Of a DNA stretch of 35,745 nucleotides, positions 415 through 17,528 are shown in pieces (position 1 is the first letter of the stretch; the number at the start of each line of letters is the position of its first letter). Both the position numbers and the translations under genes were made by a program. Source of the stretch: Acidobacteria bacterium AH-259-G07 (GTDB lineage: Bacteria; Acidobacteriota; UBA6911; RPQK01; JADFOI01); NCBI GenBank assembly GCA_027717925.1, contig JALLON010000003.1, positions 1 to 35,745 on the forward strand, read 5' to 3'. The notes under the pieces were generated by a model, which saw nothing but the letters and a program-made list of their open reading frames with translations, made no database searches and was not told the origin of the DNA.

Positions 415-2619
415 ATGAGAATGCGGTCCAACAGAACTCTACTGGCGTTTGTGCTGGCCTTTAGCACTTTCTTGGCCCAAGCCTCGGACTGGCCAACTTG
501 GCGAGGCCCGGGTCAAAACGGCGTCTCTTCGGAAACCGGCTTGATTTCCAGCTGGTCACTGGAGGGCGAGAACTTGCTTTGGAAATCCGACTTTATTGGC
601 CGTTCCACTCCCGTCATTCTAAATGGCCGCGTTTACGTCATCGGGCGAGCGGGTGAAGGCATCAACAAGCAGGAGCGAGTGGCCTGCTTCGACGCGGAAA
701 GCGGAAAACTGCTGTGGGAACACCGCCTGAATGTGTTCTTGACCACCGTCCCTTTCCCACGCGTGGGATGGGCCAATCTCACGGGAGACCCCGAAACGGG
801 GAATATATATGCCCACGGAGTGGCGGGTTTGTTCGTCTGCTTTGATGGTGATGGCAAGGTGATTTGGCAGCACTCGTTGACCGAGGAATTTGGGCGAATG
901 GCCGGCTATGGTGGCCGAACCCACACACCGGCAGTGGATGGAGATCTGGTGATTCTCAGCCTGATCAATAGCAACTGGGGCGATCAGGCCGCTCCTCGTC
1001 ACCGCTATTTTGCTTTTGACAAGCACAGCGGGGAGGTGATCTGGGTCTCCACGCCTGGAGGTAGACCCTACGACCTGAACACCTATTCCACCCCGGTCAT
1101 AGCCGCCATCAACGGTCAACGCTTGCTCATTGGTGGAAATGCGGATGGAGCTATCTATGCCCTGAAAGTACAAACGGGAGAAAAGGTCTGGGGATTCAAG
1201 TTGAGCAAGCGAGGAATCAATTCGTCCGTCGTGGTTGATGGTACTCGGGTGTACGCCAGCCACAGCGAGGAGAACTTGGATGAGGCGAATATGGGGCGAT
1301 TGGTGTGTATTGACGGAACCGGGAGCGGAGATGTGACCCGGACGCATGAGCTGTGGCGCTACAACCAGCTTAAAGCCGGATTTGCTTCCCCGACCGTGCA
1401 CCAGGGCCGGGTCTATGTGATTGACAACTCGGCCAATCTGCATTGCCTGGACGCCACCAATGGGAAGGTCTATTGGAAATACAACCTGGGAACTGTGGGG
1501 AAGGGTTCTCCAGTCTGGGCGGATGGAAAACTTTATACGACAGAGCTAAATGGCGCCTTTAACATCCTTCGGCCCGGAGCTGCCGAGTGTGAGTCGCTGG
1601 ACGAAGTGATTATTCCGCTGGGCAACCGCACAGCGGAAATTTACAGCTCTCCTGCCATCGCTTACAGGCGCGTGTTTTTCGCCACCGAAGACGGGCTTTA
1701 CTGCCTGGGGAAAAAGGACTCCCCATTTTCGCTCTCTGCTTCTTCCCTGCCCTCTTCTTCTGATTCTAAGCCCGGCCCACAGCAATCCTCACCTGCCCAT
1801 CTGCAGATTGTTCCTGCGGAGGTTATAACGGGCCCGGGGGAAACCGTTCAATTTCGTGTTCGAGCCTACGACACCCAGGCGCGCTTTCTGGGTGAAGTGG
1901 ATGCCAAGTGGTCGCAAAGTGGCTTGAGTGGTCAGCTGGATCAGGCAGGGAGATTTCGCCCAGAGCCGTCAGCGCAGCATCAAGCCGGCAAGGTCTTGGC
2001 CAAGGTGGGAGGTTTGGAGGCCTCGGCTCGCCTTCGGGTGATGCCCGACTTACCCTGGCAGGAGGACTTTGAAATCATGGAGGTTGGGAAGATTCCTACC
2101 CACTGGATTGGAGCGGCTGGTCGCTTTTCCGTACAGCTCAAAGACGGAAACAGGGTCCTTTCCAAACCCTTTGTCAGGAGAGGGATCCAGCGCTCCTATG
2201 TGTACATAGGGCCTTCAGACTTGAAAAACTATACCATGCAAGCCGACTTGATGGGCACCAAGGACGGACGTCGTATCCCTGATATGGGATTGATCGCAAA
2301 CCGGTATGTCCTTGCCTTAATGGGTGCTCGGCAGCAACTTCATGTCCATTCCTGGGCCTCGGAATTACGAATGGCCAGGAGTGCCGATTTTCCATGGCAG
2401 CCCAACATCTGGTACACCATGAAGATGAGAGTCGATGTTGAAGGAAATAAAGCCGTCGTTCGGGGCAAGGTCTGGCCCAAAACAGAAACGGAACCCGAGG
2501 CCTGGAGTATTGTCGTGGAGGACCCTTTGCCGAATCGGGAAGGGACTCCGGGTTTATTCGGGCAATCCTATGCTGAAATCTTTTATGACAACATCAAAGT
2601 AAGCAAGAGTGAACCATGA
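415..2619 (+). CDS. Secreted PQQ-like (BamB-type) beta-propeller protein with C-terminal Ig-like and ConA-like beta-sandwich domains
   Basis: Signal peptide ending AQA-SDWPTWRGP; repeated 'CFDAESGKLLW / ALKVQTGEKVW / CLDATNGKVYW' blades; Ser/Pro linker; then IVPAEV..PGETVQFRV (Ig-like) and WQEDFE..YTMQADL..WYTMKMRV (lectin-like). GGAG at 406-409 favours ATG 415 or 421 over GTG 412. Confidence 0.85.
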   Translation: MRMRSNRTLLAFVLAFSTFLAQASDWPTWRGPGQNGVSSETGLISSWSLEGENLLWKSDFIGRSTPVILNGRVYVIGRAGEGINKQERVACFDAESGKLLWEHRLNVFLTTVPFPRVGWANLTGDPETGNIYAHGVAGLFVCFDGDGKVIWQHSLTEEFGRMAGYGGRTHTPAVDGDLVILSLINSNWGDQAAPRHRYFAFDKHSGEVIWVSTPGGRPYDLNTYSTPVIAAINGQRLLIGGNADGAIYALKVQTGEKVWGFKLSKRGINSSVVVDGTRVYASHSEENLDEANMGRLVCIDGTGSGDVTRTHELWRYNQLKAGFASPTVHQGRVYVIDNSANLHCLDATNGKVYWKYNLGTVGKGSPVWADGKLYTTELNGAFNILRPGAAECESLDEVIIPLGNRTAEIYSSPAIAYRRVFFATEDGLYCLGKKDSPFSLSASSLPSSSDSKPGPQQSSPAHLQIVPAEVITGPGETVQFRVRAYDTQARFLGEVDAKWSQSGLSGQLDQAGRFRPEPSAQHQAGKVLAKVGGLEASARLRVMPDLPWQEDFEIMEVGKIPTHWIGAAGRFSVQLKDGNRVLSKPFVRRGIQRSYVYIGPSDLKNYTMQADLMGTKDGRRIPDMGLIANRYVLALMGARQQLHVHSWASELRMARSADFPWQPNIWYTMKMRVDVEGNKAVVRGKVWPKTETEPEAWSIVVEDPLPNREGTPGLFGQSYAEIFYDNIKVSKSEP

Positions 2620-4070: not shown

Positions 4071-4100
4071 GGCCCGTGTCTTTAAAGACACGGCCCCTTC
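4067..4100. repeat. REP-like palindrome (GGCCGTGTC/GACACGGCC type) between convergent genes; possible bidirectional terminator
   Basis: GTAGGGCCCGTGTCTTTAAAGACACGGCCCCTTC; perfect 20-bp palindrome at 4074-4093; contains both stop codons; near-identical arms at 10371-10394. Confidence 0.7.
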
Positions 4101-5509
4101 TGGAAGGCCCGGGCACGGAACAGGAAGTCCACCAGATTGCCCTCATGCGGCTGAAGCCAGTTGAGGTGAATGGTGGGGATCGGCCCCAGATTGAGCCGGT
4201 CAATGTGCGTGCAGTCCAAGAGCGCCCTTAGAAATCCCTCCTCTTGAGTGATTCCCGTAGCGACCAGGGTGCTGCCAATGTGCTTCAGCATTTTCTCCTG
4301 CGGACACTCGACGACGCTGACAAAGGGGAACATGTACTCGGTGTTGGCCAGCCTCCGCTGGGGGGAATCGCACACAACGACCGAGGGGCGCAGATAGGCA
4401 CAGCGCTCCTGGACGATCAGCCGATCGCCCTCTCGGTACTTGGCGCACAGGTCCTCAACACCGGACTCCTGGAGGCCCTGTTCGATCACTGCATTAGTGG
4501 CCTCAGCCTGCCCCGCCACGGTAAAGGCCGCCAGTGCGGCCTCGGGGTCTTCCGGTGGCTTGGGGGCGATGGGCCCCAGACGCTGGGCCAGGGCCTCGGC
4601 GATCTCCCGGCCGTGTCTTGATACCCAGATGCCGGAGCAGCTGATGCAGCTTCGGCCGCTGTTGATCAGCACACTATCCACCATCAGCTCCAGGTGCTGT
4701 TTCCAATCATCCACCTGGTCGTCGCCGAAGAGGATTTTGCTGAACCCCGGGCCGTGCACCTGTAGGCGTGGATTACCCTTGTACTGCTCGACAGTGGCCG
4801 TACCGCCGAAGATCAAGTTGCGTGGGCAGTGCTCCAGCACGGCCGCTCCTACATCGCCCAAACCCGGATACAGCGCCACAGCCTTGCGGGGTACACCGGA
4901 CTGAAAAAAAGCTTCGGTCATCCGGTACGGGGTCCACGGCTCTTGCGGACCCGGCTTGAGCACTAAACCAATCTGTAGCGGTATGACCGGCAGCCACAAA
5001 CCGTGAACGCCCGGGGAGTTCGACGGCAAGACCATGCCCAGTACCGGCGTCGTGGCTTGGTAGCTGCGCATCACCCCGTTTTCTTCACCGTAGCCTCTAC
5101 TCAGGATACCCAGGTCCAACCCGCGGGTAAGCGATCCGAGGATGTTCTCCAGATTTGTCAGCACATAGTGGAGCTTCTCCATGTTCTGGCGGCACATGTG
5201 TTCAGGCAGTCCCGTCGTGGCTGACTGGTACTTAATGAACTCATCAGGCGTCTGGGTTGCTTCACCGGCGGGCAGCTCGGCCCTCATGAAGAGCTCTGCC
5301 GCATTTTTGAGCATGCCGAGAAGTTCGCCGCAAGGGATCTCACGCAAGACATGGCGCGCTCGCTGGGCCTTGCGCATGTCGCGCTGAATCAGCCCGCGGT
5401 TGGCCTGGCTCACCTCGGCCAGCGGCTCCCCGCTGGCAAAGTGGACCACCTTGTCCATGTCCAGACTCTTGTAGGGCTCTCCCCAACGGAGGATCGGAAA
5501 GTGAATCAC
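4082..5509 (-). CDS. ALDH-superfamily protein, EhpG/GriD (LuxC-like) reductase type
   Basis: LPSNSP, LKPG, FGG, catalytic Cys in NSGRSC, EYMFP; HGPGFSK replaces the canonical ELGGK; GTG start with GGAG RBS; immediately downstream of the EhpF-like gene. Confidence 0.85.
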   Translation of the reverse strand: MIHFPILRWGEPYKSLDMDKVVHFASGEPLAEVSQANRGLIQRDMRKAQRARHVLREIPCGELLGMLKNAAELFMRAELPAGEATQTPDEFIKYQSATTGLPEHMCRQNMEKLHYVLTNLENILGSLTRGLDLGILSRGYGEENGVMRSYQATTPVLGMVLPSNSPGVHGLWLPVIPLQIGLVLKPGPQEPWTPYRMTEAFFQSGVPRKAVALYPGLGDVGAAVLEHCPRNLIFGGTATVEQYKGNPRLQVHGPGFSKILFGDDQVDDWKQHLELMVDSVLINSGRSCISCSGIWVSRHGREIAEALAQRLGPIAPKPPEDPEAALAAFTVAGQAEATNAVIEQGLQESGVEDLCAKYREGDRLIVQERCAYLRPSVVVCDSPQRRLANTEYMFPFVSVVECPQEKMLKHIGSTLVATGITQEEGFLRALLDCTHIDRLNLGPIPTIHLNWLQPHEGNLVDFLFRARAFQKGPCL

Positions 5510-5537: not shown

Positions 5538-6650
5538 TCAATACACCCCTACGGTGGTGGTTGCGGCGAAACGGTGATAAGGGCGGACGCCGCTCACGCC
5601 GTCCCAAGGGTACAGATCGCAGGGCGGCTCGCGCTCTCCCTCATCCCGCTCGACAAAGCGGGGCATGAAAAACTCTTTCGTCAGCGTGCTGAGCATCACC
5701 CGGCCCGTTTGGCCGTAGTCGATCACTTTGTCAGGATCATCAAAGTCGACCACTCCCAGCACGGCCCGTGGCTGGGGAGCATAGTAAATGATCTTGTAGT
5801 TGTCCGCCGGGTCGAACGGTTTGGAGGCGGCTAAGCCCATAAGTGTGTTCCCGTAGGTGGGCGCCATGTAGACACCCTCCAGCAGCTCCTCCATGGCAAA
5901 GCGGTACCACTGCGGCGTAAACTCTGTTCCGCCGGAGAAGATACCCGTGATGCCGGCTTCTTTGATACTCGATCCTTCGGCCTCCAGGTGATTGGCCAGG
6001 GCTTCCAGCAGCTTGGGTGTGGCGAACAGGCATTTAATGTTGTGCCCGGCCGACAGGAGAGTCGCCGCCTGATCGATAACGTGCTGCTGGTAAGCCTTCA
6101 GGTGCTCCATCCACGTTTTTTCGATCAGCTTGATCACCCACCTGGGGTCCAGGTCGACGCAAAAGCAGATCCCGCCGCGGTACTGGGCCAAGTGCTCTAC
6201 CGCCAGGCGCAAGCGCCGCGGGCCAGAGGGCCCCAGCATCAACCAGTTGGCGCCTTTCGGGAAATGCTCCTCGGGCAAGGTCTTCGAGAACATTTCATAG
6301 TCGATCCGGAAGTCCTCGATATTAACCCGCGACTTGGGAATCCCGGTCGTGCCGCCCGTCTCGAAGACGTAGATAGCCCGATCACGGTAAGCCTTGGGGA
6401 CCCAGCGCTGGACCGGTCCGCCCCTCAGCCATTCGTCCTCAAAGTGGCCAAACTTGACGAGGTCATCGAAGCCCTGCACTTCCTCCCGCGGATCCCAACC
6501 TGCCTGCTGCCTCCAGTCGAGCCAGAAGGGGCACCCGGTCTCAGGGTTGAAGTGCCACTCGATGATCTCCCGCACGTGGGCATTCAGTCGCTCCCGCGAG
6601 GCGCGGGCTGTGCCTTCCAGTTGCCCGTTCACTGAACCTGGAAAGGTCAT
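5538..6650 (-). CDS. EhpF/GriC-like short adenylate-forming (AMP-binding) enzyme
   Basis: WHFNPETGCPFWL, ETGGTTGIPK P-loop, GGICFCVDLDPRWV, GGTE, YG, ERD and C-terminal GVY, all motifs I recall from Pantoea EhpF; 370 aa. Confidence 0.8.
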   Translation of the reverse strand: MTFPGSVNGQLEGTARASRERLNAHVREIIEWHFNPETGCPFWLDWRQQAGWDPREEVQGFDDLVKFGHFEDEWLRGGPVQRWVPKAYRDRAIYVFETGGTTGIPKSRVNIEDFRIDYEMFSKTLPEEHFPKGANWLMLGPSGPRRLRLAVEHLAQYRGGICFCVDLDPRWVIKLIEKTWMEHLKAYQQHVIDQAATLLSAGHNIKCLFATPKLLEALANHLEAEGSSIKEAGITGIFSGGTEFTPQWYRFAMEELLEGVYMAPTYGNTLMGLAASKPFDPADNYKIIYYAPQPRAVLGVVDFDDPDKVIDYGQTGRVMLSTLTKEFFMPRFVERDEGEREPPCDLYPWDGVSGVRPYHRFAATTTVGVY

Positions 6651-6894: not shown

Positions 6895-8112
6895 ATGATG
6901 AAACAAGCAGCTGAGGGCAGACAATTGGTTGACCATTCGAGAATTTCACGTTCCACATTTGGCATTCGGCATTCGGTATTCGGTATTTCACATTCGACAT
7001 TCGGCATTCGAAATTCGACATTTCTGGTGCTGCTGATCATTGGGGCAGCTTGGAGTTTCGGCTCCGGATCTTCTGAATCTTGGATCCTGTTCCGAGGCGA
7101 CGCGCAGCTGACAGGGGTTGCGCGAAGCTCTTTACCGGAAAGGCTCAAGGTGGCGTGGACCTTCCCAGCAGGTGATGGGATCGAGTCCACCGCAGCGATC
7201 TCCTCGGGCTCCGTTTATGTCGGCTCTTTCGATAGTTACCTCTACGCCTTAGAACTGGACACCGGACAGCTCAGATGGAAGTACAAAGCCCAAGATGAAA
7301 TTAAGTCCTCCCCATTGGTGGTGAATCAGGTCATCTACTTCGGTGATGAGTCGGGCGTTTTCCATGCTCTAGATGCCCGCACAGGCCAGAGAAAATGGAG
7401 TTTTCAAGCCGATGCTGGAATCACTTCATCGGCCAACTTTGCCCAAGGCCGCGTGCTATTTGGCTCTTACGATCAGTACCTTTACTGCCTCTCAGCTGAT
7501 GATGGATCCCTGCTTTGGAAGCTCGAAACCGGCGGCTACGTTCATGCGACTCCGGCGGTACTTAAACAGGATGTCGCCATAGTGGGGTGTGACGGCTACT
7601 TTCGCCTTCTCCGGATTCAAGACGGGCGGGAAAAAATGAAGTTGGACCTCCGTGCCTATGTAGGTGCCAGCCCCGCTATACGGGACAATCGGGCTTATGT
7701 GGGAACCTTTGAAAGCCAGGTCCTGTGCATCGATGTGGAAAAGGCTCAGACTCTCTGGCAATATGAACACGCGCGACGGCATTTTCCGTTTTACTCCTCG
7801 GCGGCAGTGACGGATGATCTGGTGCTGGTGGGCGGTCGAGATAAGATGCTTCATGCTCTCGACCGCCAAACGGGTGAGAAGATCTGGACCTTCCAGGCCG
7901 GAGCCCGGGTGGACTCTTCCCCGGTCGTTGTCGAGGATCGGGTGGTCTTTGGATCCACAGACGGGCTGATTTATGTGCTGAAGCTGGATTCCGGCCAAGT
8001 CCTCTGGCAATTCGACACTGGCTCCTCGATTCTAGCTTCACCCAGCGTCGCCAGTGGTAAGCTGGTCATCGGTACCGCGGACGGTCTTCTATATTGCTTC
8101 GCCGCAGAATGA
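6895..8112 (+). CDS. Secreted PQQ-like (BamB-type) beta-propeller protein; start uncertain
   Basis: WILFRGDAQLTG, then regular blades (ALELDTGQLRW, ALDARTGQRKW, CLSADDGSLLW, ALDRQTGEKIW, VLKLDSGQVLW); the hydrophobic leader follows a heptamer repeat. Confidence 0.85.
   Translation: MMKQAAEGRQLVDHSRISRSTFGIRHSVFGISHSTFGIRNSTFLVLLIIGAAWSFGSGSSESWILFRGDAQLTGVARSSLPERLKVAWTFPAGDGIESTAAISSGSVYVGSFDSYLYALELDTGQLRWKYKAQDEIKSSPLVVNQVIYFGDESGVFHALDARTGQRKWSFQADAGITSSANFAQGRVLFGSYDQYLYCLSADDGSLLWKLETGGYVHATPAVLKQDVAIVGCDGYFRLLRIQDGREKMKLDLRAYVGASPAIRDNRAYVGTFESQVLCIDVEKAQTLWQYEHARRHFPFYSSAAVTDDLVLVGGRDKMLHALDRQTGEKIWTFQAGARVDSSPVVVEDRVVFGSTDGLIYVLKLDSGQVLWQFDTGSSILASPSVASGKLVIGTADGLLYCFAAE
6934..7025. 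repeat. 7-bp tandem repeat, about 12-13 units, consensus CATTCG(G/A)
   Basis: cattcga g aatttca cgttcca catttgg cattcgg cattcgg tattcgg tatttca cattcga cattcgg cattcga aattcga catttct. Confidence 0.85.
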
Positions 8113-8126
8113 GCAAGAAGTTATCC

Positions 8127-8155
8127 GTAGGGGCGAGCCGGCGGCTCGCCCCTAC
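8127..8155. repeat. GTAG-type REP-like palindrome
   Basis: GTAGGGGCGAGCCG-G-CGGCTCGCCCCTAC, perfect 14-bp inverted repeat; its first 13 bp recur at 13406. Confidence 0.8.
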
Positions 8156-8231: not shown

Positions 8232-10364
8232 ATGCTAAATCTTTTTCGCTTACTGCCGTGGTCCGTGCTTTCATTGACTCTCGTTTTGCCAGCCAGCGTT
8301 TTTGGCCAAGAAGCGAGCGAAAGCAAAGAAGAAGAGGAAGAGAAGAAAACAGAGATTTCCCCGCAGAGCTACGAGGTGGTGGTTGAGGATAGTGTTTCCT
8401 ATAGGCCCTCCCTGAACACTGTAGTCATGAAGCTTCCCATCCCCCTTCAATCCACACCGGCAAGTGTGGGAGTCGTCACCGCACCACTTTTTCAAAATCA
8501 GGATGCCACCATTTTGGGGGATGCGCTCAGAAACGTGAGTGGTGTGCTGGCTCACACAGGCTTCGGGGTTCACGATTTCTTCACCATTCGGGGATTCGAT
8601 TCACTCTCGGGCGGCTTGGTGCTCACCGATTCCGCCCCGGAACCGGAGGTGACCTTTTACCACTTGTACAACGTGGAACGGATCGAGGTCCTGAAAGGCC
8701 CCAGTGCCTTTCTATACGGTGGTAACCCTCTGTCGGGCAGCGTGAATTTGGTCAGAAAGCAGCCTCTGTTTGAAAATTCCCTCCAGCTTGGTGGAGCTTT
8801 CGGCTATTTCGAAACCTATCGCGGCAGCGTCGATCTGAATCGTGTGAGCTCGGATGGCAGCTTCGCCTTCCGTCTGAATGTGTTCGGGCAGGATTCGGAT
8901 AATTATCGGGACGATAAGGATAACCGGCAGTTTGGCGTCAATCCGGCCTTGACCTGGACCTTAGGAGGCAAAAGTTCTCTTGCGGTGAACTTTGAGTACA
9001 TCAACAGTGACTACAAATCCGATTCTGGTCTGCCCTTGGTCAATAATAATCAGATACCTGATGTGGCCCGCACTCGTTCCTATCAGTCACCTTTTGACTT
9101 TTCCGACCAGGAAATCTACCGGGTGCGACTTGATTTCAACACCGTCGTGAATGATTTCCTGACGCTCAGAAACAAATTCTACTTTACCGATTTGGATTGG
9201 CGTTCGGCCGGGACCCTTTTCAGTGGCGTTTTCCCCAACCAGCAAGGCAGCCTGGACGTCTTCCGTTTCCTTTCCCGGCTGGACGATCGCCAGAAGCTGG
9301 TCGGAAATCAATTTGAAGGGCTCTTTTCCATATCGACGGGCACAGTGAGCCACAATCTGCTGGCTGGATTCGAGTTCAACCGTTTGGGAGATGAGTTCAC
9401 TCTGGATGTCGCTTTCTTACCCCCTATTGATCTCTTTAACCCAGTTGAAAGAGCCACGGAGCCGCTCTTCCCTCTGCCCGGTCAATTGCAGGCGGCAGAT
9501 GCGCGAAGTCTGGTCTTTGCTCCTTACCTGGTCGACCAGATTGCTTTGTCCGAACAGGTGCAGCTGTTTTTGGGAGGGCGGCTGGATGTCATTGATTACG
9601 ATGATAAGGCGACGGCGACCTTGCGCAATGACAGCCAGTTTAGCCCTCTTCTGGGACTCGTTTATGCACCCAACCCCCAGCTTTCGTTTTATGTCAACGG
9701 GGGAAAGGCCTTTGCTCCGCCCTCCACTCTAGTCGTTGGAGAGCGCAAACCGGAAGAAAGCACCCAATATGAGGTTGGTGTCAAAAAGCAATTCCAGGGA
9801 GGTAAGATCGACACCACTCTGGCTTTTTATCACTTGGAAAAGAACAACATCGCAATTCCGGATCAAAGCGGTGTGACCCGGCAGACGGGGGATCAACGCT
9901 CCAGGGGTATTGAACTGGACTTTGCGGGTGAACTCGCCCTTGGCTGGTATGTCTTTGCTTCCTATGCTTTTAATGAAGCCGAGCTGACTGATTTCAGCGA
10001 GCGTATTATCATCAGTTTTAATCCTTTCTCTGCGATCACGCTGGATCGCTCCGGAAATCGTGCCGCTTTCGCACCCAAACACCTGTTCAATTTCTGGACC
10101 GTGAAAGAGTTTCGGAACGGAGTCAGCGTGGGTGGGGGAGGCCGCTATATTAGCGATCAGTTCATTGCTGAAGACAATGCCTTTAAGATTGACGGCGTGT
10201 TCACGCTGGATGCTACCCTGGCTTATCGCTTTAACAATTGGCGGTGGAGCCTGAACTTCAAAAACATCACCGATCGTAAATACGAAACTCGAGGCTTTAG
10301 ATCCACCTCTGTCATTCCAGCAAATCCGTTTGCTTTGTATGCCAGGGTCGAACTGGGAATGTGA
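8232..10364 (+). CDS. TonB-dependent outer-membrane receptor (siderophore-receptor-like)
   Basis: Signal peptide from ATG 8232 (MLNLFRLL...VFG-Q); TonB-box-like YEVVV; plug motifs ALRNVSGV, IRGF, VERIEVLKGPSAFLYG, GSVNLVRK; barrel motifs YEVGVK, RSRGIEL, LNFKNITD. Confidence 0.92.
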   Translation: MLNLFRLLPWSVLSLTLVLPASVFGQEASESKEEEEEKKTEISPQSYEVVVEDSVSYRPSLNTVVMKLPIPLQSTPASVGVVTAPLFQNQDATILGDALRNVSGVLAHTGFGVHDFFTIRGFDSLSGGLVLTDSAPEPEVTFYHLYNVERIEVLKGPSAFLYGGNPLSGSVNLVRKQPLFENSLQLGGAFGYFETYRGSVDLNRVSSDGSFAFRLNVFGQDSDNYRDDKDNRQFGVNPALTWTLGGKSSLAVNFEYINSDYKSDSGLPLVNNNQIPDVARTRSYQSPFDFSDQEIYRVRLDFNTVVNDFLTLRNKFYFTDLDWRSAGTLFSGVFPNQQGSLDVFRFLSRLDDRQKLVGNQFEGLFSISTGTVSHNLLAGFEFNRLGDEFTLDVAFLPPIDLFNPVERATEPLFPLPGQLQAADARSLVFAPYLVDQIALSEQVQLFLGGRLDVIDYDDKATATLRNDSQFSPLLGLVYAPNPQLSFYVNGGKAFAPPSTLVVGERKPEESTQYEVGVKKQFQGGKIDTTLAFYHLEKNNIAIPDQSGVTRQTGDQRSRGIELDFAGELALGWYVFASYAFNEAELTDFSERIIISFNPFSAITLDRSGNRAAFAPKHLFNFWTVKEFRNGVSVGGGGRYISDQFIAEDNAFKIDGVFTLDATLAYRFNNWRWSLNFKNITDRKYETRGFRSTSVIPANPFALYARVELGM

Positions 10365-10368
10365 GGAA

Positions 10369-10405: not shown

Positions 10406-10633
10406 ATGATGAAAACTTTTCCTCGCTGGATTCTCTACGTAGCAGCGTTTCTCCTCTATGTGCTGCACAATGATCTGTGGTTCTGGAACGATCCTCGATT
10501 AGTGCTGGGCTTGCCGATCGGTCTCCTTTACCATGTTGCATTTTGCCTGGCTGCCTCGGCTTTGATGGTGTTTTTGGTGATCTATGCCTGGCCCGAGAAG
10601 CTCGAGGTTGAAGAAGAGAGAGAAGAGGAATGA
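10406..10633 (+). CDS. Small 2-TM membrane protein (DUF3311-like), symporter accessory subunit
   Basis: Two hydrophobic segments around HNDLWFWNDPRLVLGLP; ATGA overlap with the symporter gene. Confidence 0.75.
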   Translation: MMKTFPRWILYVAAFLLYVLHNDLWFWNDPRLVLGLPIGLLYHVAFCLAASALMVFLVIYAWPEKLEVEEEREEE

Positions 10634-12108
10634 TCACGACAGGGGTCATCTTTGTTTACCTGGTCTTGGTGCTCCTGATTGGGGCCTTTAGTCACAAGTT
10701 GTTTCGGGGCACAGGTGAGGATTATTTTGTCGCCACCAGAACCATCGGCCCCTTCATCCTTCTTATGTCCCTCTTTGGGACCAACATGACTTCCTTTGCC
10801 CTGTTGGGAGCCTCAGGAGAGGCTTATCATCAGGGGATAGGCGTCTTTAGTCTGATGGCTTCGGCCGGTGCCCTGGTAATTCCTTGTGTCTTCTTCTTTG
10901 TTGGACCGCGTGTCTGGTCACTGGGAAAGCGTCACGGTTATCTTACTCAAGTTCAATTGTTCCGCGAACGTTGGGGTTCGGATGGATTTGGTCTGGTCCT
11001 GTTTGTAGTTCTCATCGCTCTCATTATTCCGTACCTGTTAATCGGTATCATGGCCGGAGGGATTACCCTGAATGAAATCACAAATGGCCAGATCCCGGAA
11101 TGGGCTGGTGGACTCACGGTCTGCCTGGTGGTTTTGGCTTATGTTACCTATGGTGGCCTGCGAGGAACGGCTTGGGCCAACACTTTTCAGACTCTGGTCT
11201 TCATGATTCTGGGCGGTGTGACCTTTTACGTCGTGGTGGACCGCTTGGGTGGCTTCTCGGCTGCCCTGGCCCGAGTCGTCAATCAACACCCGGAGTTGCT
11301 CATCCGCGGGGACTCCATCCAACCCTTAAAATTGTTGACCTATACCTTTGTTCTGCTTTCGGTGGGAATGTTTCCCCACATGTTCATGCACTGGCTCTCA
11401 GCCCGCCGGGCGGCAACCTTTCGCTATCCGTTGATGTTTTATCCAGTATGTATTGCCGTGGTTTGGCTCCCCAGCGTGTTGTTGGGAATCCTGGGGAGCG
11501 TGGATTTTCCAGGACTGAAAGGGCCCCAGGCCAACTACATCCTGGTCAAAATGATCGGGCTTCATGCTCCGGAGATCCTGGCGGGCCTTTTGGCAGCGGG
11601 TGTATTGGCAGCCGTCATGTCCTCGCTCGACTCCCAGGTTCTTTCCATCGGAAGCATGTTCACTCAAGACATCGTGAGACATTACGGATTTCACGATCGA
11701 ATGAGCGAAAAACAGCAGGTACTGGTCGGAAGACTCTTTGTCGTGGGTATTCTGGTCGTGACCTATTTGCTCTTTCTCATCTCTAATCGGAGCATCTTCA
11801 GACTGGGGATCTGGTCCTTCAGCGGATTCTCCGCGCTGTTTCCCATAGTCGTTGCAGCGCTGTTTTGGAAGCGAAGCACAAAGTACGGGGCCTTTGCCTC
11901 GGTCTTTAGTGTGGTCGTCTTATGGATCTACTTCTTTCTCCAGGCCGGACGGGCTGAGGATTATACGATCGGCGGTACAGGAGTCATGCCGGTCGCAGTG
12001 ATTTTGGCTGTGTCCACTGCGGCCATGATCCTCTTTTCACTTTTGAGCAAGGCACCCGATCAGGCCGTGATTGAGAAGTTCTTCCCTAGCGGAGGGGGCA
12101 GACCTTGA
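10630..12108 (+). CDS. Sodium:solute symporter (SSS) family protein
   Basis: EDYFVATR, YGGLRGTAWANTFQ, AAVMSSLDSQ, ALFWKRSTKYGA; about 13 hydrophobic segments. Confidence 0.92.
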   Translation: MITTGVIFVYLVLVLLIGAFSHKLFRGTGEDYFVATRTIGPFILLMSLFGTNMTSFALLGASGEAYHQGIGVFSLMASAGALVIPCVFFFVGPRVWSLGKRHGYLTQVQLFRERWGSDGFGLVLFVVLIALIIPYLLIGIMAGGITLNEITNGQIPEWAGGLTVCLVVLAYVTYGGLRGTAWANTFQTLVFMILGGVTFYVVVDRLGGFSAALARVVNQHPELLIRGDSIQPLKLLTYTFVLLSVGMFPHMFMHWLSARRAATFRYPLMFYPVCIAVVWLPSVLLGILGSVDFPGLKGPQANYILVKMIGLHAPEILAGLLAAGVLAAVMSSLDSQVLSIGSMFTQDIVRHYGFHDRMSEKQQVLVGRLFVVGILVVTYLLFLISNRSIFRLGIWSFSGFSALFPIVVAALFWKRSTKYGAFASVFSVVVLWIYFFLQAGRAEDYTIGGTGVMPVAVILAVSTAAMILFSLLSKAPDQAVIEKFFPSGGGRP

Positions 12109-12119: not shown

Positions 12120-13409
12120 ATGAGAATCGCCTACATCGCCGCTGGAGCCGCCGACATGTACTGCGGCAGTTGTATACACGATAACACGCTAGCGGCCGCA
12201 CTCCAGAAAAAAGGCCACGAGGTGGCTCTCTTGCCCACCTATACACCTCTTCGTACCGACGAGCCGAACGTGAGCATGGACCACATCTTCTATGGGGGAA
12301 TCAATGTTTATCTGCAGCAGAAGTTTGCTCTGTTTCGCCATACCCCCTGGGTTTTGGATTCGTTATTCGATCGACCGATTCTGCTTAACCTGGTCTCGCA
12401 GTTCAGTTCGACAACCAATGCCCGGGATCTGGGAGCCTTGACGGCATCTGTTCTCAAAGGGGAGCGAGGGTATCAGCAAAAGGAGTTGGTCAAATTGGTT
12501 ACCTGGTTGAAAGACTCCGTGCAACCTGAAATTGTCCAGCTCACCAATTCCATGTTCCTTGGCCTCGCCAAACAGATTAAACAAGAGTTGCAGGTCCCCG
12601 TTCTTTGTGCTCTTCAGGGAGAAGATATCTTCATGCAGGATCTTCTTGAGCCGCACAAATCGCAGGTGCTGGAACTCCTTCGAAAACGGGTGCCTGACGT
12701 GGACGGTTTCATCGCCACCAGTGAGTATTACGCCGACTTCATGTCGCAGTATCTCGATATCGCCAGGGAGAAGATCCATGTGGTGAGGTGGGGCCTGAAC
12801 CTGCAAGGTCACGGAAAGCTCCCGAAAAATACCGGCAAGAATTCCTTCGCAATAGGCTACCTGGCCCGCATTTGTCCTGAAAAGGGCCTTCACCTGTTGG
12901 TGGAAGCCTTCCACCGGTTGTGCGAGAGGCCGAACCCTGACCAACTCCAGCTCAAGGTTGCCGGTTACCTCAGCAAGCGAGACAAGCCCTATTTTAATCG
13001 TATTCTCCAGAAAATTTCGCAGTGGGGTCTCGAGGGCCGATTCGACTATTGGGGTGAAGTGGACCGCCGGCAAAAGATCCAGTTTCTCAATACTCTTCAT
13101 GTTCTATCCGTACCGACCACCTATCGGGAACCAAAAGGCTTATACGTTCTGGAGGCACTCGCCAACGGTGTGCCGGTCGTTCAGCCCCGTCACGGGTCCT
13201 TCCCGGAGTTGATCCAAGCGACGGGCGGGGGCGTTCTGGTCAATCCGGACTCGGCAGGCGCTCTGGTCGAAGGAATTCAGTCGTTAGTTGAGGATTCTGA
13301 ACACCGAGACAGGCTTGCCCGGCAGGGAAAGGAGGCGGTTCACCGAGCCTTTAGCGACGAGATGATGGCGGAAGCAACTCTAGCCGTTTATCGGCAGTAT
13401 GTACGGTAG
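12120..13409 (+). CDS. Glycosyltransferase family 4 (GT-B)
   Basis: MRIAYI, GHEV, GYLARICPEKGLHLL and EPKGLYVLEALANGVPVV (EX7E motif). Confidence 0.9.
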   Translation: MRIAYIAAGAADMYCGSCIHDNTLAAALQKKGHEVALLPTYTPLRTDEPNVSMDHIFYGGINVYLQQKFALFRHTPWVLDSLFDRPILLNLVSQFSSTTNARDLGALTASVLKGERGYQQKELVKLVTWLKDSVQPEIVQLTNSMFLGLAKQIKQELQVPVLCALQGEDIFMQDLLEPHKSQVLELLRKRVPDVDGFIATSEYYADFMSQYLDIAREKIHVVRWGLNLQGHGKLPKNTGKNSFAIGYLARICPEKGLHLLVEAFHRLCERPNPDQLQLKVAGYLSKRDKPYFNRILQKISQWGLEGRFDYWGEVDRRQKIQFLNTLHVLSVPTTYREPKGLYVLEALANGVPVVQPRHGSFPELIQATGGGVLVNPDSAGALVEGIQSLVEDSEHRDRLARQGKEAVHRAFSDEMMAEATLAVYRQYVR

Positions 13410-13476: not shown

Positions 13477-14148
13477 GTGTCACTGAAAGTATCCGACCTG
13501 CAAAAGCACTTTGGCAGTGAGCCCCACCGGGTGGAAGTTCTGCGCGGCATTTCTTTCGAACTGGGCCCGGGAGAATCCCTCGCTATCACCGGGCCCTCGG
13601 GTTCAGGGAAGAGTACACTTCTTCACTGCCTGGGAACTTTGTCCCCACCCTCCTCGGGAAGCATCGAAATCGACGGCAAAAATCCCTTTGCCTTACCGGA
13701 GCCTGAGTTGGCTCGATTCCGGAACCGGGTGATTGGTTTTGTCTTCCAGGCCCATCATCTCCTCCCCCAGTATTCTGTCCTCGAAAATGTGCTGATGCCG
13801 GCCTTGGCATTTCCCGACCTGCGTCAGCACACGGAAAAGTGCGCCCTGGAACTGCTAAAAAAAGTGAGTCTGAATAATCGTTTAGGGCATCTTCCCTCAG
13901 AACTCTCTGGAGGTGAGCGTCAGAGGGTGGCTGTGGCCCGTGCTCTCATTAATCGGCCCAACCTGCTGCTTTGCGATGAGCCTACGGGAAACCTCGACCG
14001 CTCTACCGCTCAATCTGTGGCTGCTCTTTTATTTGAGCTCCACCGGGAAGAGAAGAATATTCTAATCGTCGTCACCCACAGTCTTGAGCTGGCCGACCGC
14101 TTTCCGCGGCGTTTTGAGCTGAAGGAGGGAGCGTGCGTCGCAGTCTGA
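13477..14148 (+). CDS. ABC transporter ATP-binding protein, LolD/MacB-type
   Basis: GPSGSGKST, IGFVFQ, LSGGERQRVAVARAL, LLLCDEPTGNLD, VTH. Confidence 0.93.
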   Translation: MSLKVSDLQKHFGSEPHRVEVLRGISFELGPGESLAITGPSGSGKSTLLHCLGTLSPPSSGSIEIDGKNPFALPEPELARFRNRVIGFVFQAHHLLPQYSVLENVLMPALAFPDLRQHTEKCALELLKKVSLNNRLGHLPSELSGGERQRVAVARALINRPNLLLCDEPTGNLDRSTAQSVAALLFELHREEKNILIVVTHSLELADRFPRRFELKEGACVAV

Positions 14149-17100
14149 TCTATTTCTGGCGAATGAATCTGGCGGTGGCCCTGGGAGCCGCCGTAACCAC
14201 GGCGGTGCTGACCGGGGCTCTTCTGGTGGGCGATTCCGTCCGAGGCAGCCTGCGAGATCTCACGCTGGATCGCCTGGGCGGCATCGACTACTCCCTGGTG
14301 CCCCAAAGGTTCTTCCGTGAAGACTTGGCCGTGGACCTGGCCGAGGACACAGCTTTTAGGGATCATTTTAGGGAGGTGGCTCCTGCCATCCTGCTGGGCG
14401 GCAGCGCCACTCACGCTGGTTCGCAAGCCCGAGCCTCAAAGGTCAGTATTCAGGGAATCGACCAGCGTTTTCTGGAAGTTTTTGGACTTGGCCCGGACGG
14501 CCCTCCTATCGATTTCGATTCAGGCGGTGCAAAAAGGGTCTTCCCTCCCGTGGTGATCAACCAATCGCTTCAAAAGGAGCTCGGTGCAAACATCGGTGAT
14601 CCTATTCTAATCTCGTCGAAAAAACCTACCCAGATTCATCCGGAATTCTTGCTCGGCAGTCGAGATCCTTCAGACCTGCTGGAAACAATTCGACTGAGCC
14701 TGGTCCAGGTTATACCGGACCGCGGAGTGGGAAGATTTGGTCTTGATCCTCACCAGAATCTCCCTTTTAATGCGTACCTTCCTCTATCTGTTCTCCAGAA
14801 GGCCCTCCAGCAGGAGGGACGTGTCAATGCCTTGCTGGTAGCCCAAAGTTCCGGGTCCACCCCAGATAGCGGGACGTCGATACTACAGGAAAGCTTGCGC
14901 CGGGTGCTCCAGCTTCAGGATCTGAACTTAAGGCTGCGAGAAGGCCTGGCCTATTTTGCCCTGGAAAGTCGGGAGATGATTATTCCCCCCTTGATTGAAG
15001 AAGCTGCCGCAGCTGCGGCTGTGGACTTGCAGGCACCTTTCCAGCGTATTTTGACCTACCTGGCCAATGGTATGACTGCCCGCGAACGAGCGATTCCCTA
15101 CTCGACCGTTACAGCCATGGATCCTTCGAAGGGTGATGGCTTTGGCTCTCTGGAGCTGACGAACGGTCAGCCTGCAGCTCCCTTGGGGGAAAACGACATT
15201 CTCCTGAACAAGTGGGCTGCCGACGACTTGAGCGTGAAGGAAGGCGATTTGATTGAGCTCAGCTATTACGTGCTGGGTCCCCGGGAGCAGCTCCTTACCC
15301 AAAAGGCCCGATTTCAATTAACAGGGATCGTGGCCCTGAAGAACCTGGGTGTCGATCGGACTCTCACACCCGAGATTCCAGGTGTTCAAGACGCACAGGA
15401 CATGGCAGCGTGGGATCCTCCCGTTCCCATCGCCCTCGATCGGATCCGGCCCAAGGATGAGGCCTACTGGGATGAATTTGGAGCTGCGCCTAAGGCTTTT
15501 GTGGCTTACGCAGCAGGTCTGAATTTGTGGAGCAGTCGCTTTGGGCGTCTGACCTCGATTCGAGTCGGTGCTGCTAAAGACAGCAATCTGGAGTCGACGC
15601 AAGAGCGGTTTCAAAGGGCCTTGCTGGAGCGAATTAGCCCCATGGGGGTTGGTTTTATCTTCCAGCCGGTCAAGGAGCAAGGCTTAAGGGCATCAGCTGG
15701 AGCCACCGATTTCAGCATGCTTTTTATTTCGTTCAGCTTCTTTCTGATCACCTCGGCGGCCCTTTTGGTCGGGCTTCTGTTTCGCTTGGGTGTGGAGCAG
15801 CGGGCTCGCGAGATCGGCCTTTTACTATCCTTGGGTTATCCGCTGAAGTCCGTGCGCCGGCGCTTCTTGGCTGAGGGAGCTCTTGTGGCTGGAGCAGGCT
15901 CGCTCCTGGGTCTGGCGGGTGCTCTCGCCTATGCATGGCTGTTGATCTTTGGCCTGCGAACCTGGTGGTCGGCGGCTGTAGGATCTCCGTTCCTTTCTTT
16001 CTATGTTACTCGACTAAGTCTGATAGTGGGGTATCTGGTTTCGCTGGCCGTTGTCCTCTTTTCCATTTGGTGGGCCCTACGGAAGCTGGCCCAACTGCCA
16101 ACGCCAGTGCTCCTGGGGGGCGGCACCTCCCACCCTGTGCAAGCCCGAGCGCGCCGATGGGTCAGGGTCTTGGCTCTCGCCAGTCTGGGATTGGCGATGG
16201 TTCTCATGCTCATTGCTGTTCTCACACAGGCTACCTCCTCGGTGGGATTATTTTTTGGAATTGGGACAAGCTTATTGCTGGCCGGTCTGTCTTTTTTCTC
16301 TCTCTGGCTGCGAGCCTCTCGCCGCGTTCCCATTCAGCCCCACAGGCTCGCCCTGCCGGTGCAGATTGCCGCCAGGAACAGCGCCTGGAATCCCGGGCGA
16401 AGTTTGCTTAGCACGGCTCTGGTTGCCAGCGCTTGTTTTGTCATTGTCAGCGTGGGGGCCAATCGCCATGAACCGGGCGAAGAACTCCTTCGCCGGGACT
16501 CAGGCGCGGGAGGGTTTTCCTTGCTGGCCCAATCGGACATTTCTGTGCACCAGGACTTGAACGATCCGGAAGGACGCTTTGATTTGGGCTTCTCTGACAG
16601 CGATTCGGAGAAACTGAGCGAAGTTCGGATCATGCCCTTCCGAGTGCTTCCGGGCGAGGACGTCAGCTGTCTGAACCTGTATCAACCTCAAAAGCCCCGC
16701 ATCTTAGGCGTCCCGCCGGAGCAAATCGCTCGAGGAGGGTTCCAGTTTCAACAGCTGTCTAAGGATGTCGAGAATCCATGGACTTTGCTTGAACAAAGCC
16801 TGGAAGCAGGTGTCATTCCTGCTGTCGGCGATGCCAATTCTGTCCTGTGGATCCTGCATCTAGGGCTGGGTAAGGACTTGATTTTGCAAAACGAAAGAGG
16901 CGAAGAGATCAAGCTTCGCCTGGTGGCTCTTCTGCGAAGCAGCATCTTTCAAAGCGAGCTCTTGATCTCCGAGGCTAATTTCTTAAGACACTTTCCCAGT
17001 CAGAGCGGATATTCTTACTTTTTGATCGAAGCGCCGCTGGAAAAAAGACAGGAAATGGCTTCTCTATTGGAAAGCAATCTAAATCGCCATGGGCTGGACG

Positions 17101-17528
17101 CTACCTCCACCGCTGAGGTACTGGCCAGCTATCTGGCGGTCGAAAACACTTATCTGTCCACATTTCAAACATTGGGGGGTCTGGGCCTGCTGTTGGGCAC
17201 ACTGGGGCTGGGGATTGTTCTGGTGAGAAATGTCCTCGAACGCAGGGGTGAGCTGGCCACGCTTCGCGCTTTTGGCTTTCCCCGATCGAAGCTGGCCTGG
17301 ATGGTCCTGGCCGAAAATGGATTTCTGCTGATGCTTGGCCTGGTGCTCGGTACGGCTTCGGCACTGGTTGCCGTGGCGCCTCATTTGGCTGGCGGCGGCG
17401 CTCCAATTCCCTGGCTGTCGCTTTCTCTAACGCTTCTGGCCGTACTTGTGGTGGGCCTGGCAGCCGGTGCCGCCGCCGTCGTCGCGGCACTGCGGGTCCC
17501 TTTGCTTCCAGCCCTCAAGGCAGAGTGA
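14133..17528 (+). CDS. Large FtsX/MacB-type ABC permease (duplicated architecture)
   Basis: Two FtsX-like modules (EQRAREIGLLLSLG; ERRGELATLRAFGF), each preceded by a large periplasmic domain; overlaps the ATPase gene. Confidence 0.9.
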   Translation: MRRSLIYFWRMNLAVALGAAVTTAVLTGALLVGDSVRGSLRDLTLDRLGGIDYSLVPQRFFREDLAVDLAEDTAFRDHFREVAPAILLGGSATHAGSQARASKVSIQGIDQRFLEVFGLGPDGPPIDFDSGGAKRVFPPVVINQSLQKELGANIGDPILISSKKPTQIHPEFLLGSRDPSDLLETIRLSLVQVIPDRGVGRFGLDPHQNLPFNAYLPLSVLQKALQQEGRVNALLVAQSSGSTPDSGTSILQESLRRVLQLQDLNLRLREGLAYFALESREMIIPPLIEEAAAAAAVDLQAPFQRILTYLANGMTARERAIPYSTVTAMDPSKGDGFGSLELTNGQPAAPLGENDILLNKWAADDLSVKEGDLIELSYYVLGPREQLLTQKARFQLTGIVALKNLGVDRTLTPEIPGVQDAQDMAAWDPPVPIALDRIRPKDEAYWDEFGAAPKAFVAYAAGLNLWSSRFGRLTSIRVGAAKDSNLESTQERFQRALLERISPMGVGFIFQPVKEQGLRASAGATDFSMLFISFSFFLITSAALLVGLLFRLGVEQRAREIGLLLSLGYPLKSVRRRFLAEGALVAGAGSLLGLAGALAYAWLLIFGLRTWWSAAVGSPFLSFYVTRLSLIVGYLVSLAVVLFSIWWALRKLAQLPTPVLLGGGTSHPVQARARRWVRVLALASLGLAMVLMLIAVLTQATSSVGLFFGIGTSLLLAGLSFFSLWLRASRRVPIQPHRLALPVQIAARNSAWNPGRSLLSTALVASACFVIVSVGANRHEPGEELLRRDSGAGGFSLLAQSDISVHQDLNDPEGRFDLGFSDSDSEKLSEVRIMPFRVLPGEDVSCLNLYQPQKPRILGVPPEQIARGGFQFQQLSKDVENPWTLLEQSLEAGVIPAVGDANSVLWILHLGLGKDLILQNERGEEIKLRLVALLRSSIFQSELLISEANFLRHFPSQSGYSYFLIEAPLEKRQEMASLLESNLNRHGLDATSTAEVLASYLAVENTYLSTFQTLGGLGLLLGTLGLGIVLVRNVLERRGELATLRAFGFPRSKLAWMVLAENGFLLMLGLVLGTASALVAVAPHLAGGGAPIPWLSLSLTLLAVLVVGLAAGAAAVVAALRVPLLPALKAE

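Follow-up and report, generated by a model that had tools for sequence, protein, structure and literature searches.

Eleven tightly packed genes were found at positions 412 to 17528 of the window, which is the whole contig JALLON010000003.1 (C223; 35,745 nucleotides) of Acidobacteria bacterium AH-259-G07, whose genome of 2.99 Mb is 66% complete and is divided into 451 contigs. They encode three secreted beta-propellers (P1, P2, and P3), an EhpF-like adenylating enzyme with a partner of the aldehyde dehydrogenase (ALDH) superfamily, a TonB-dependent receptor (TBDR), a small DUF3311 membrane protein, a sodium:solute symporter (SSS), a glycosyltransferase (GT4), and the ATPase and FtsX-type permease of an ATP-binding cassette (ABC) transporter (Table 1). 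It is close to certain that these eleven genes belong to one conserved system, of which the window carries a reduced and partly inverted copy. The system is distributed in Acidobacteriota, Planctomycetota, and Opitutaceae, and has 11 genes here and 14 to 17 genes in full clusters.

A listing of the open reading frames (ORFs) together with family calls from Pfam and NCBIfam confirmed what a first-pass annotation of this DNA had described, namely eleven packed genes, several of them with overlapping ends. The divergent EhpF/EhpG-like pair described there was also confirmed on the minus strand, where one gene product matched EhpF of the PDB and the other matched Aldedh. P1 and P2 overlap by 4 bases, as do DUF3311 and SSS, and the overlap of the ABC ATPase gene with the FtsX gene is 16 bases. 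The remaining gaps between genes on the same strand are 12 to 68 bases, except for the junction of P3 and the TBDR gene, at which the longest ORFs overlap by 19 bases or, with a later TBDR start, lie ca. 84 to 120 bases apart; the likely TBDR start is at about 8196 to 8232, where a signal-like sequence begins. The EhpF-like/ALDH-like pair is divergent from P3, with a gap of 244 bases between them.

Table 1. Genes of the system in the window, in order of position.
Gene	Position	Strand	Product
P1	412..2619	+	735 aa; PQQ_2/BamB-like beta-propeller, secreted; C-terminal extension
P2	2616..4070	+	484 aa; secreted beta-propeller
ALDH-like	4082..5509	-	475 aa; ALDH-superfamily partner of EhpF-like, proposed acyl-enzyme reductase
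EhpF-like	5538..6650	-	370 aa; EhpF/GriC-like truncated ANL adenylating enzyme
P3	6895..8112	+	405 aa; secreted beta-propeller, Beta-prop_ACSF4/PQQ_2 type
TBDR	8094..10364	+	TonB-dependent receptor, siderophore-receptor subfamily; outer-membrane importer by family
DUF3311	10406..10633	+	75 aa; small membrane protein, partner of SSS
SSS	10630..12108	+	492 aa; sodium:solute symporter, inner-membrane importer by family
GT4	12120..13409	+	429 aa; glycosyltransferase
ABC ATPase	13477..14148	+	223 aa; LolD/YbbA/FtsE/MacB kind
FtsX permease	14133..17528	+	1131 aa; duplicated FtsX/MacB-type (type VII)

The neighbourhood of the EhpF-like gene was surveyed in other genomes by tblastn (at least 35% identity and at least 80% coverage), and the best 80 loci, 51 of which were full-length, were examined within 10 kb on either side. 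When gene calls were weighted by G+C content at third codon positions (GC3), 75 of the 80 loci yielded their EhpF-like gene; calling by longest ORF lost it to antisense ORFs in 30 of the 80. The best 80 loci lie in Acidobacteriota, Planctomycetota, and Opitutaceae. An ALDH-like orthologue adjoins the EhpF-like gene in 58 loci, and the others were found less often (ABC ATPase, 28; GT4, 22; FtsX, 18; P2, 16; P1, 13; P3, 6). Two orders recurred on one strand: EhpF-like, ALDH-like, GT4, ABC, and FtsX, and P1, P2, EhpF-like, and ALDH-like.

Full clusters were mapped in larger stretches of seven genomes with nearby probes by tblastn with a panel of the proteins. One-strand collinear clusters of 14 to 17 genes were present in six genomes (G081, G120, G041, G057, G054, and G093). 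Their full order starts with P1, P2, EhpF-like, ALDH-like, an iron-containing alcohol dehydrogenase (Fe-ADH), P3, a HemN/ChuW-like radical S-adenosylmethionine (SAM) enzyme, and (propeller), and continues with (TBDR), (halogenase-like flavoprotein), DUF3311, SSS, GT4, (c36), a YbgC-type/4HBT thioesterase, ABC, and FtsX. G054 lacks the TBDR gene, G041 and G057 lack the flavoprotein gene, and G093 lacks DUF3311 and SSS. The window shows the same order with the EhpF-like/ALDH-like pair inverted, and is without five accessory genes, those for Fe-ADH, the radical SAM enzyme, the halogenase-like flavoprotein, the thioesterase, and c36, a small uncharacterised protein. By tblastn, neither the first four of these nor a PaaK-like ligase was found in this 66%-complete genome, and a stretch of 67 to 72 aa that is 39% identical to c36 was found on another of its contigs (C330). 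The view of the first-pass annotation that the genes form one unit is supported by their co-localisation elsewhere and by their co-occurrence even where they are scattered; it had missed that the locus is a reduced version of fuller clusters. In G057 (L093 and L094, C2:708000-738000), the otherwise complete cluster has an EhpF-like gene split by one TGA and one TAG and a P2 gene in pieces; this cluster looks decayed.

More dispersed arrangements were also observed. In G180, the nearest relative sampled, the EhpF-like/ALDH-like pair is divergent from a 61%-identical TBDR gene, and GT4, ABC, and FtsX follow one another on a different contig. Among the Gemmatales, locus L048 has the order PaaK-like, P1, P2, EhpF-like, ALDH-like, Fe-ADH, P3, and radical SAM, locus L037 has the first five of these, and separate pairs of flavoprotein with GT4 and of ABC with FtsX lie elsewhere. 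In Opitutaceae, the genes for ABC, the PaaK-like ligase, c36, the thioesterase, GT4, the radical SAM enzyme, P3, and Fe-ADH lie opposite the EhpF-like/ALDH-like pair; P3 was called as a gene in L030 and appeared as a tblastn match in L031, in which P2 and P1 follow.

The accessory enzymes were compared with NCBIfam models. The flavoprotein contains GxGxxG and WxWxIP, the latter being the halogenase motif, in all five sequences inspected, and its best match is CmlS (199 to 230 bits, cut-off 900). It is followed by the geranylgeranyl-reductase family (137 to 141 bits, cut-off 158.8), QhpG (134 bits), LodB (115 bits), and GoxB (81 bits), all below the cut-offs. The best match of Fe-ADH is ErcA of a pyrroloquinoline quinone (PQQ)-ethanol system, with 226 bits against a cut-off of 550.

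Five of the genes (EhpF-like, P2, FtsX, GT4, and SSS) were profiled in 301 genomes of Acidobacteriota, the phylum to which the window belongs. EhpF-like was present in 81 genomes, P2 in 87, FtsX in 88, and GT4 in 86; all four were present in 78, any of them in 90, and none in 211. These tallies include two unpublished genomes, G049 with all four and G152 with these and SSS, and all four occur in 76 of 299 when both are left out. P2 and FtsX were found together in 86 of the 89 genomes having either, P2 was accompanied by EhpF-like in 80 of 87 genomes, and 85 of the 86 GT4-positive genomes have FtsX. The SSS orthologue (E ≤ 1e-100) was present in 61 genomes, every one of which bears the system (60 with FtsX, 60 with GT4). 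The genes often lie megabases apart, as seen in the complete genomes G088 and G148 and also in G073; since they still co-occur, their link is not one of synteny alone. Presence is patchy by family, from none of 20 genomes in f28 to 11 of 11 in f30. G026 has only a 33%-identical EhpF paralogue, and a few incomplete genomes are without one of the genes. Among 161 genomes of Planctomycetota, EhpF-like was present in 31, FtsX in 49, and P2 in 29, with EhpF-like and FtsX together in 30, EhpF-like and P2 in 28, and all three in 27. The first-pass annotation had stated that its idea would fall if homologues of these genes neither co-occurred nor co-localised, or were not co-regulated; on the first two points, six collinear clusters and the presence of all four probes in 78 of 90 genomes leave it standing. 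For a pattern that spans families and two phyla, another explanation is hard to find.

The EhpF-like protein matched EhpF in the PDB (3l2k) with an E value of 1.6e-40, its residues 21-358 aligning with residues 19-353 of the 366 of EhpF. It is of the ANL type without the C-terminal subdomain and has a weak AMP-binding match in Pfam, and no NCBIfam model matched it. In its P-loop (T98-K106), seven of nine positions are invariant among 76 sequences, T101 and I104 being the variable ones. At least 589 relatives were found when one genome per species was scanned, and where they are named in the sources they are called 'hypothetical' or 'PaaK-like'. The best 80 are 64 to 82% identical and the identity across phyla is 54 to 82%, a conservation far above that commonly seen among enzymes of secondary metabolism. 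The ALDH-like protein (Aldedh, 73 bits), when aligned to PDB 4go3, keeps Cys288 and Asn164 and has His252 at the position of the general-base Glu. In an alignment of 58 sequences, consisting of 57 locus orthologues and the protein of the window, His252 and Cys288 were found in all 58 and Asn164 in 57, with one gap. An invariant His at this position fits the reduction of an enzyme-bound acyl group and not its hydrolysis to the acid. An ANL enzyme without the C-terminal subdomain and an adjacent ALDH with the catalytic Cys, the features looked for in a two-component carboxylate reductase, are thus both present, and the homology and active-site residues of the pair are compatible with a putative ATP- and NAD(P)H-dependent carboxylate reduction. 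Ten of the 80 loci, and likewise the six full clusters, have Fe-ADH beside the pair, which suggests a further step to the alcohol in fuller clusters.

Two characterised pairs resemble the one described here, GriC/GriD of grixazone biosynthesis in Streptomyces griseus and EhpF/EhpG of the phenazine D-alanylgriseoluteic acid (AGA) pathway in Pantoea, in both of which a truncated ANL protein of ca. 370 aa stands beside an ALDH-superfamily protein. A passage of PMC10179220 states that GriC forms the acyl-AMP and that GriD carries out the reduction to the aldehyde, and EhpF and EhpG are given as adjacent genes of phenazine clusters in a passage of PMC11278526. Unlike these pairs, that of the window is not accompanied by scaffold genes for phenazine or 3-amino-4-hydroxybenzoic acid (3,4-AHBA), and its company consists of importers, GT4, an ABC transporter of type VII, and secreted propellers. 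Matches of the ALDH-like protein on Streptomyces plasmids were followed to a phenazine-like cluster and set aside, the neighbouring 366-aa protein not being EhpF-like. Fifteen longer proteins appeared to join members of the system (nine EhpF-like with ALDH, one of these also with part of Fe-ADH; three propeller with EhpF-like; three other). All 15 are singletons and many have truncated domains, and true gene fusions were therefore rejected in favour of merged gene calls that show adjacency only. In the Vicinamibacterales loci (L005-L023), a DUF4399 protein is encoded between EhpF-like and ALDH-like in 14 loci; the upstream genes are those for a pterin-4a-carbinolamine dehydratase, a MOSC-domain protein, and DUF6526, and downstream there are genes for an enoyl-CoA hydratase and a tricorn-like protease. 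Seven loci of Blastocatellia have a Vut_1 transporter gene ahead of EhpF-like.

Among the import genes, the TBDR scored 291.3 bits with TIGR01783 (cut-off 223.5), with 68 bits for the plug and 169 bits for the barrel, which places it in the siderophore-receptor subfamily; no specific receptor equivalog of NCBIfam was reached. Its orthologues are 45 to 61% identical in G120, G041, G093, G081, G057, and G180, and 54% identical in L003. DUF3311 scored 31.6 bits in Pfam (cut-off 30) and its gene directly precedes SSS in G120, G041, G081, G054, and G057. SSS (Pfam SSF, 138 bits) has orthologues that are often encoded directly upstream of GT4. The side-by-side position of a DUF3311 gene and a transporter gene recalls the MctP-type permease of Sinorhizobium fredii. 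In passages of PMC9100948 on the RpuS/R locus of that organism, the monocarboxylate permease gene is depicted with a DUF3311 gene next to it, and in the rpuS mutant a DUF3311 gene and a sodium:solute symporter gene are both suppressed. The likeness does not extend to the score of SSS with the MctP model, which is far below the cut-off (52.5 bits against 625); PutP and PanF scored higher yet far below their own cut-offs. In approximately a dozen of the SSS matches, a single TGA or TAG stands in frame (e.g. G094, G255, G194, G185, G124, and G196).

A reading of TBDR, DUF3311, and SSS as unrelated neighbours was considered and was overturned by the larger stretches and the SSS profile; these genes had escaped notice owing to the limit of 10 kb and the restriction to the best 80 loci. 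The restriction of the SSS orthologue to system-bearing genomes supports a role in import. G093, which has a full cluster without an SSS orthologue, carries a TRAP-TAXI transporter directly upstream of P1 (L087, 1999-5071), consisting of a TRAP solute-binding protein of the TAXI family together with a fused permease; here, one importer looks to have been replaced by another. On plasmid 2 of Halalkalicoccus jeotgali B3 (NC_014299.1, 251925-267304), genes annotated as a symporter, a hypothetical protein, and an aldehyde dehydrogenase form a compact trio of SSS (32% identity), EhpF-like (38%), and ALDH-like (25%). This haloarchaeal trio represents, in a different domain of life, a module for import and reduction in minimal form, and it ties import to reduction independently of the rest of the system.

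GT4 scored 101 bits with Glycos_transf_1, and no NCBIfam equivalog reached its cut-off. Its N-terminus has an invariant C15-x-x-C18 and a conserved D21-N22 in 19 sequences. The ATPase (ABC_tran, 120 bits) is of the LolD/FtsE/MacB type that is cognate to such permeases, with scores that are all below the equivalog cut-offs (LolD, 260 bits against 307.75; YbbA, 203 bits against 336; FtsE, 176 bits; DevA, 172 bits; MacB, 169 bits). The permease contains two FtsX domains (83.8 bits) and matches MacB_PCD (29.5 bits, cut-off 27). A hydropathy scan gave nine hydrophobic segments, the number of membrane segments being about ten, and placed two large loops in the periplasm, near residues 33-529 and 777-1012. 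A FtsX domain and a large periplasmic domain between the first two helices, which define the type VII fold, are thus present. The sequence itself had no PDB match at E ≤ 0.01, and a profile of 15 orthologues gave weak PDB matches to YtrF (1e-7), MacB (8e-4), LolF, and LolE and none to YbbP. In NCBIfam, the permease weakly matches LolC/E and DevC.

A LolD/YbbA-like ATPase, a permease of FtsX/MacB fold, and large periplasmic domains are shared with YbbAP-TesA, LolCDE-LolA, FtsEX-EnvC, and MacAB-TolC. Like YbbP, the permease of the window is a single duplicated polypeptide, and its first periplasmic loop (ca. 497 aa in a protein of 1131 aa) is larger than those known from the solved type VII members. 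Unlike those systems, the cluster has no homologue of a membrane-fusion protein, LolA, TesA, or EnvC, and the candidate partners are the beta-propellers. A pairing between an ABC transporter of type VII and a beta-propeller partner was not found described in the searchable literature. According to PMC12646458, characterised ABC transporters of type VII work from the periplasmic side with a periplasmic partner, for which YbbAP-TesA is a precedent, and hydrophobic molecules are extracted from the membrane by YbbAP. That the FtsX transporter delivers the product across the inner membrane, as the first-pass annotation had proposed, is thus not supported.

The description of the three propellers as secreted and PQQ-like was borne out by Pfam PQQ_2 matches of 109 bits for P1, 86 bits for P2, and 142 bits for P3 and by signal-like hydrophobic N-termini, which were read by eye on all three and flagged by the hydropathy scan on P2 only (residues 8-26). 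No cysteine follows the signal-like N-termini of P1, P2, and P3, and no lipoprotein signal was therefore assigned. In P1, the propeller comprises about residues 60-430, and the C-terminal ca. 300 aa have no Pfam match; P3 scored 233 bits with Beta-prop_ACSF4 (cut-off 133). The proteins do not reach the level of PQQ alcohol dehydrogenases (TIGR03075: 38, 44, and 113 bits, cut-off 480), and the best-scoring stretches span about 35 to 100 residues of the 595-position Pfam PQQ model. Nor do they reach that of BamB (TIGR03300: 73, 67, and 209 bits, cut-off 285.2). P2 is the best conserved of the three, with orthologues 63 to 71% identical in the six full clusters. Its invariant residues are N43, those of the stretch G87-T88-N89-N90, T220, N222, G223, D285, D354, D402, D426, and K428. 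Orthologues of P1 are 44 to 58% identical and directly upstream of P2 in the collinear clusters, and those of P3 are 49 to 56% identical and lie between the Fe-ADH and radical SAM genes in six clusters. A second pair of P1-like and P2-like genes was noted elsewhere in the same genome (C216:1459-3481), its P2-like part being 60% identical and cut by the contig end.

Based on these observations, the working of the system may be as described below. A small carboxylic acid, which is probably aromatic, would enter through the TBDR at the outer membrane and through DUF3311/SSS at the inner membrane, as suggested by their families and co-occurrence. The truncated ANL enzyme would adenylate the acid, and the acyl group would pass to Cys288 of the ALDH-like protein and be reduced with NAD(P)H to the aldehyde; the homology and the active-site residues are in keeping with this chemistry, which would be as in GriC/GriD and EhpF/EhpG. 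In fuller clusters, Fe-ADH would convert the aldehyde to the alcohol, and the HemN-like radical SAM enzyme, the halogenase-like flavoprotein, and the thioesterase may tailor it. GT4 would then glycosylate the product. Finally, the type VII ABC transporter, with P1, P2, and P3 as partners, may act on the periplasmic side and pass on, bind, or process the compound or its target; this step is suggested by the near-identical phyletic patterns of P2 and FtsX and by the workings of YbbAP-TesA, LolCDE-LolA, and FtsEX-EnvC. The order of import, reduction, and glycosylation is plausible, and the chemistry and the role of the propellers are our best guess. The proposal as a whole, from uptake through reduction and glycosylation to periplasmic handling by a type VII ABC transporter and propellers, is tentative, and we give it slightly less than an even chance of being correct.

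Several points weigh against this proposal. Nothing in the cluster accounts for the passage of a cytoplasmic glycoside across the inner membrane, and we know of no type VII transporter that carries its substrate across that membrane. All members but the TBDR, the ATPase included, score below the NCBIfam equivalog cut-offs, so that functions cannot be transferred to them directly. That the acid is aromatic is a guess, drawn from the two characterised relatives and from the types of accessory enzyme. The genes for TBDR, DUF3311, and SSS were each found within 10 kb of EhpF-like in one of the 80 loci, and their membership rests on six to seven fuller clusters and the SSS profile. Seven genomes of Acidobacteriota, four of them at least 93% complete, have P2 and no EhpF-like gene (FtsX in seven of seven, GT4 in five of seven), which indicates that the reductase is not strictly required, and 19 of the 49 FtsX-positive genomes of Planctomycetota are without EhpF-like. 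Besides, the sampled genomes are related, and the co-occurrence figures overstate the independent support.

A broader form of the idea may also be stated. The genes would form an envelope machine of Acidobacteriota, Planctomycetota, and Verrucomicrobiota in which a giant type VII ABC transporter and beta-propellers are fed by salvage and tailoring (uptake by TBDR and SSS, two-component carboxylate reduction, methylation, halogenation, and glycosylation), with a product that is a new ligand or cofactor of PQQ-less propellers. We regard this form as improbable.

A variant already raised in the first-pass annotation is that of cofactor supply, in which the cytoplasmic enzymes make an organic redox cofactor or prosthetic group from a salvaged precursor and this is installed in P1, P2, and P3, which lack PQQ and would be the actual enzymes of the system. 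It has parallels in the pqq genes that accompany quinoproteins and in the qhp and lod maturation genes. The propellers have PQQ-type repeats and yet fail the PQQ-dehydrogenase models, P2 is unusually conserved, and P2 and the cytoplasmic genes co-occur tightly, all of which would suit such a supply. In addition, the flavoprotein of fuller clusters resembles, below the cut-offs, QhpG, LodB, and GoxB, which mature protein-derived quinone cofactors and of which two are named as maturases in NCBIfam, and it is accompanied by a radical SAM enzyme and an ABC transporter; the qhp operon has a radical SAM enzyme and an ABC transporter. The parts list of a propeller, a radical SAM enzyme, a QhpG/LodB-related flavoprotein, and an ABC transporter is similar to that of the qhp operon and LodA/LodB. 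However, the radical SAM enzyme is HemN/ChuW-like and not of the qhp kind, and the flavoprotein has the halogenase motif WxWxIP and its best match in CmlS (230 bits). Neither of the two is encoded in the window, and the flavoprotein is also absent from G041 and G057, and hence the two cannot be essential to the propellers. No precursor-peptide gene, small subunit, haem subunit, or cytochrome c partner was seen in the cluster, and a glycosyltransferase would be unexpected in cofactor synthesis. The binding of the product by the propellers as a cofactor is speculative and lacks support, and on balance, cofactor supply appears unlikely.

The system might instead make an envelope glycolipid. The reductase pair and Fe-ADH would produce a fatty or isoprenoid alcohol, GT4 would glycosylate it, and the Lol-like type VII transporter would extract it from the inner membrane for delivery to the outer membrane by the propellers, in the manner of DevBCA with heterocyst glycolipids and of LolCDE-LolA. 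The ATPase is most like LolD and also resembles DevA, the permease weakly matches LolC/E and DevC, and YbbAP is described in PMC12646458 as extracting hydrophobic molecules from the membrane. The YbgC-type thioesterase conserved directly upstream of ABC and the score of the flavoprotein with the geranylgeranyl-reductase family (137 to 141 bits, cut-off 158.8) also fit a lipid. On the other hand, the nearest characterised relatives of the adenylating enzyme use aromatic and not fatty acids, neither LuxC nor LuxE was among the Pfam matches at E ≤ 0.01, and the cluster is without an acyl carrier protein or acyltransferase. A dedicated TBDR and solute symporter suit a soluble imported substrate rather than a lipid made by the cell. 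We consider a glycolipid product to have a low probability.

Oxidative catabolism seems quite unlikely. Under this explanation, the TBDR would import a substrate on which the propellers act, SSS would take up their product, Fe-ADH and the ALDH-like protein would oxidise an alcohol to the acid, and the ANL enzyme would activate it. A receptor, periplasmic proteins, a symporter, and cytoplasmic enzymes are the usual layout of an uptake locus, Fe-ADH and ALDH are a common oxidation pair, and the best match of Fe-ADH is ErcA (226 bits, cut-off 550). The invariant His in place of the hydrolytic general-base Glu of ALDH argues against the release of a free acid, and the ANL enzyme is without the C-terminal domain that is needed for the formation of a CoA thioester. 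Catabolism also leaves no fitting place for GT4, the halogenase-like flavoprotein, the radical SAM enzyme, and the type VII ABC transporter.

That unrelated operons merely lie side by side could be argued from the commonness of each family and its many paralogues in these phyla, from promoter- and terminator-like sites that are no commoner in the window than in shuffled sequence, and from the scarcity of the import genes within 10 kb of EhpF-like, but chance is contradicted by the collinear clusters of 14 to 17 genes in six genomes, by the 78 of 90 genomes that have all four probes, by the replication of the pattern in a second phylum, and by the confinement of the SSS orthologue to system-bearing genomes, and is excluded.

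Downstream of the eleven genes, the window contains several further features. Directly after FtsX, at 17778-18388, genes for a DUF433 protein (84 aa) and a DUF5615 protein (119 aa) overlap by 4 bases; the two resemble an insertion of toxin-antitoxin type that separates the cluster from the next gene. The latter (18536-20296) encodes a 586-aa protein with a polysaccharide-deacetylase domain at its N-terminus and ca. 400 aa without a match. A stretch that is 52% identical over 47% of this deacetylase-type protein adjoins EhpF-like in a Planctomycetaceae locus (L035), and in Blastocatellia an FmdA/AmdA-type amidase gene lies downstream of GT4; a deacylation step may be part of the system. The genes at 20277-28186 resemble those of sugar-acid or amino-acid catabolism and encode a CehA/McbA metallohydrolase, a short-chain dehydrogenase/reductase (SDR), an SMP-30/gluconolactonase-like protein, a 444-aa protein without a match, an enzyme of the mandelate racemase/muconate lactonizing type, a cytochrome P460, and a D-serine-dehydratase-like protein. 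They showed no conservation beside the cluster within 10 kb of EhpF-like in the 80 loci. At 28396-30144, a DDE transposase in two pieces (137 and 216 aa) is overlapped by an ORF with a DruA-like stretch, and this region is probably a broken insertion element.

Each part of the system comes from a known family, and their combination seems never to have been described. A search for papers combining these families found none in the searchable literature, with subscription journals and supplements outside the search, and this agrees with the first-pass annotation, which knew of no characterised pathway of this composition; to our knowledge, there is no characterised system that does. Soils, sediments, and waters are rich in Acidobacteriota, Planctomycetota, and Verrucomicrobiota, whose conserved genes are for the most part without a known role. 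When judged by the probe genes searched in each phylum, the system occurs in 78 of the 301 Acidobacteriota sampled, or about one in four, and in 27 of the 161 Planctomycetota, or one in six, and a conserved set of 11 to 17 genes is a well-defined target. If the proposed working is true, it would represent a natural route from acid to alcohol to glycoside that relies on a carboxylate reductase of two proteins, would add a new class to the partners of type VII ABC transporters, and would give a first function to some of the many PQQ-like 'empty' propellers of these phyla. Should the mechanism prove wrong, the co-occurrence still defines a set of genes whose knockout phenotypes should coincide, which is a testable question.

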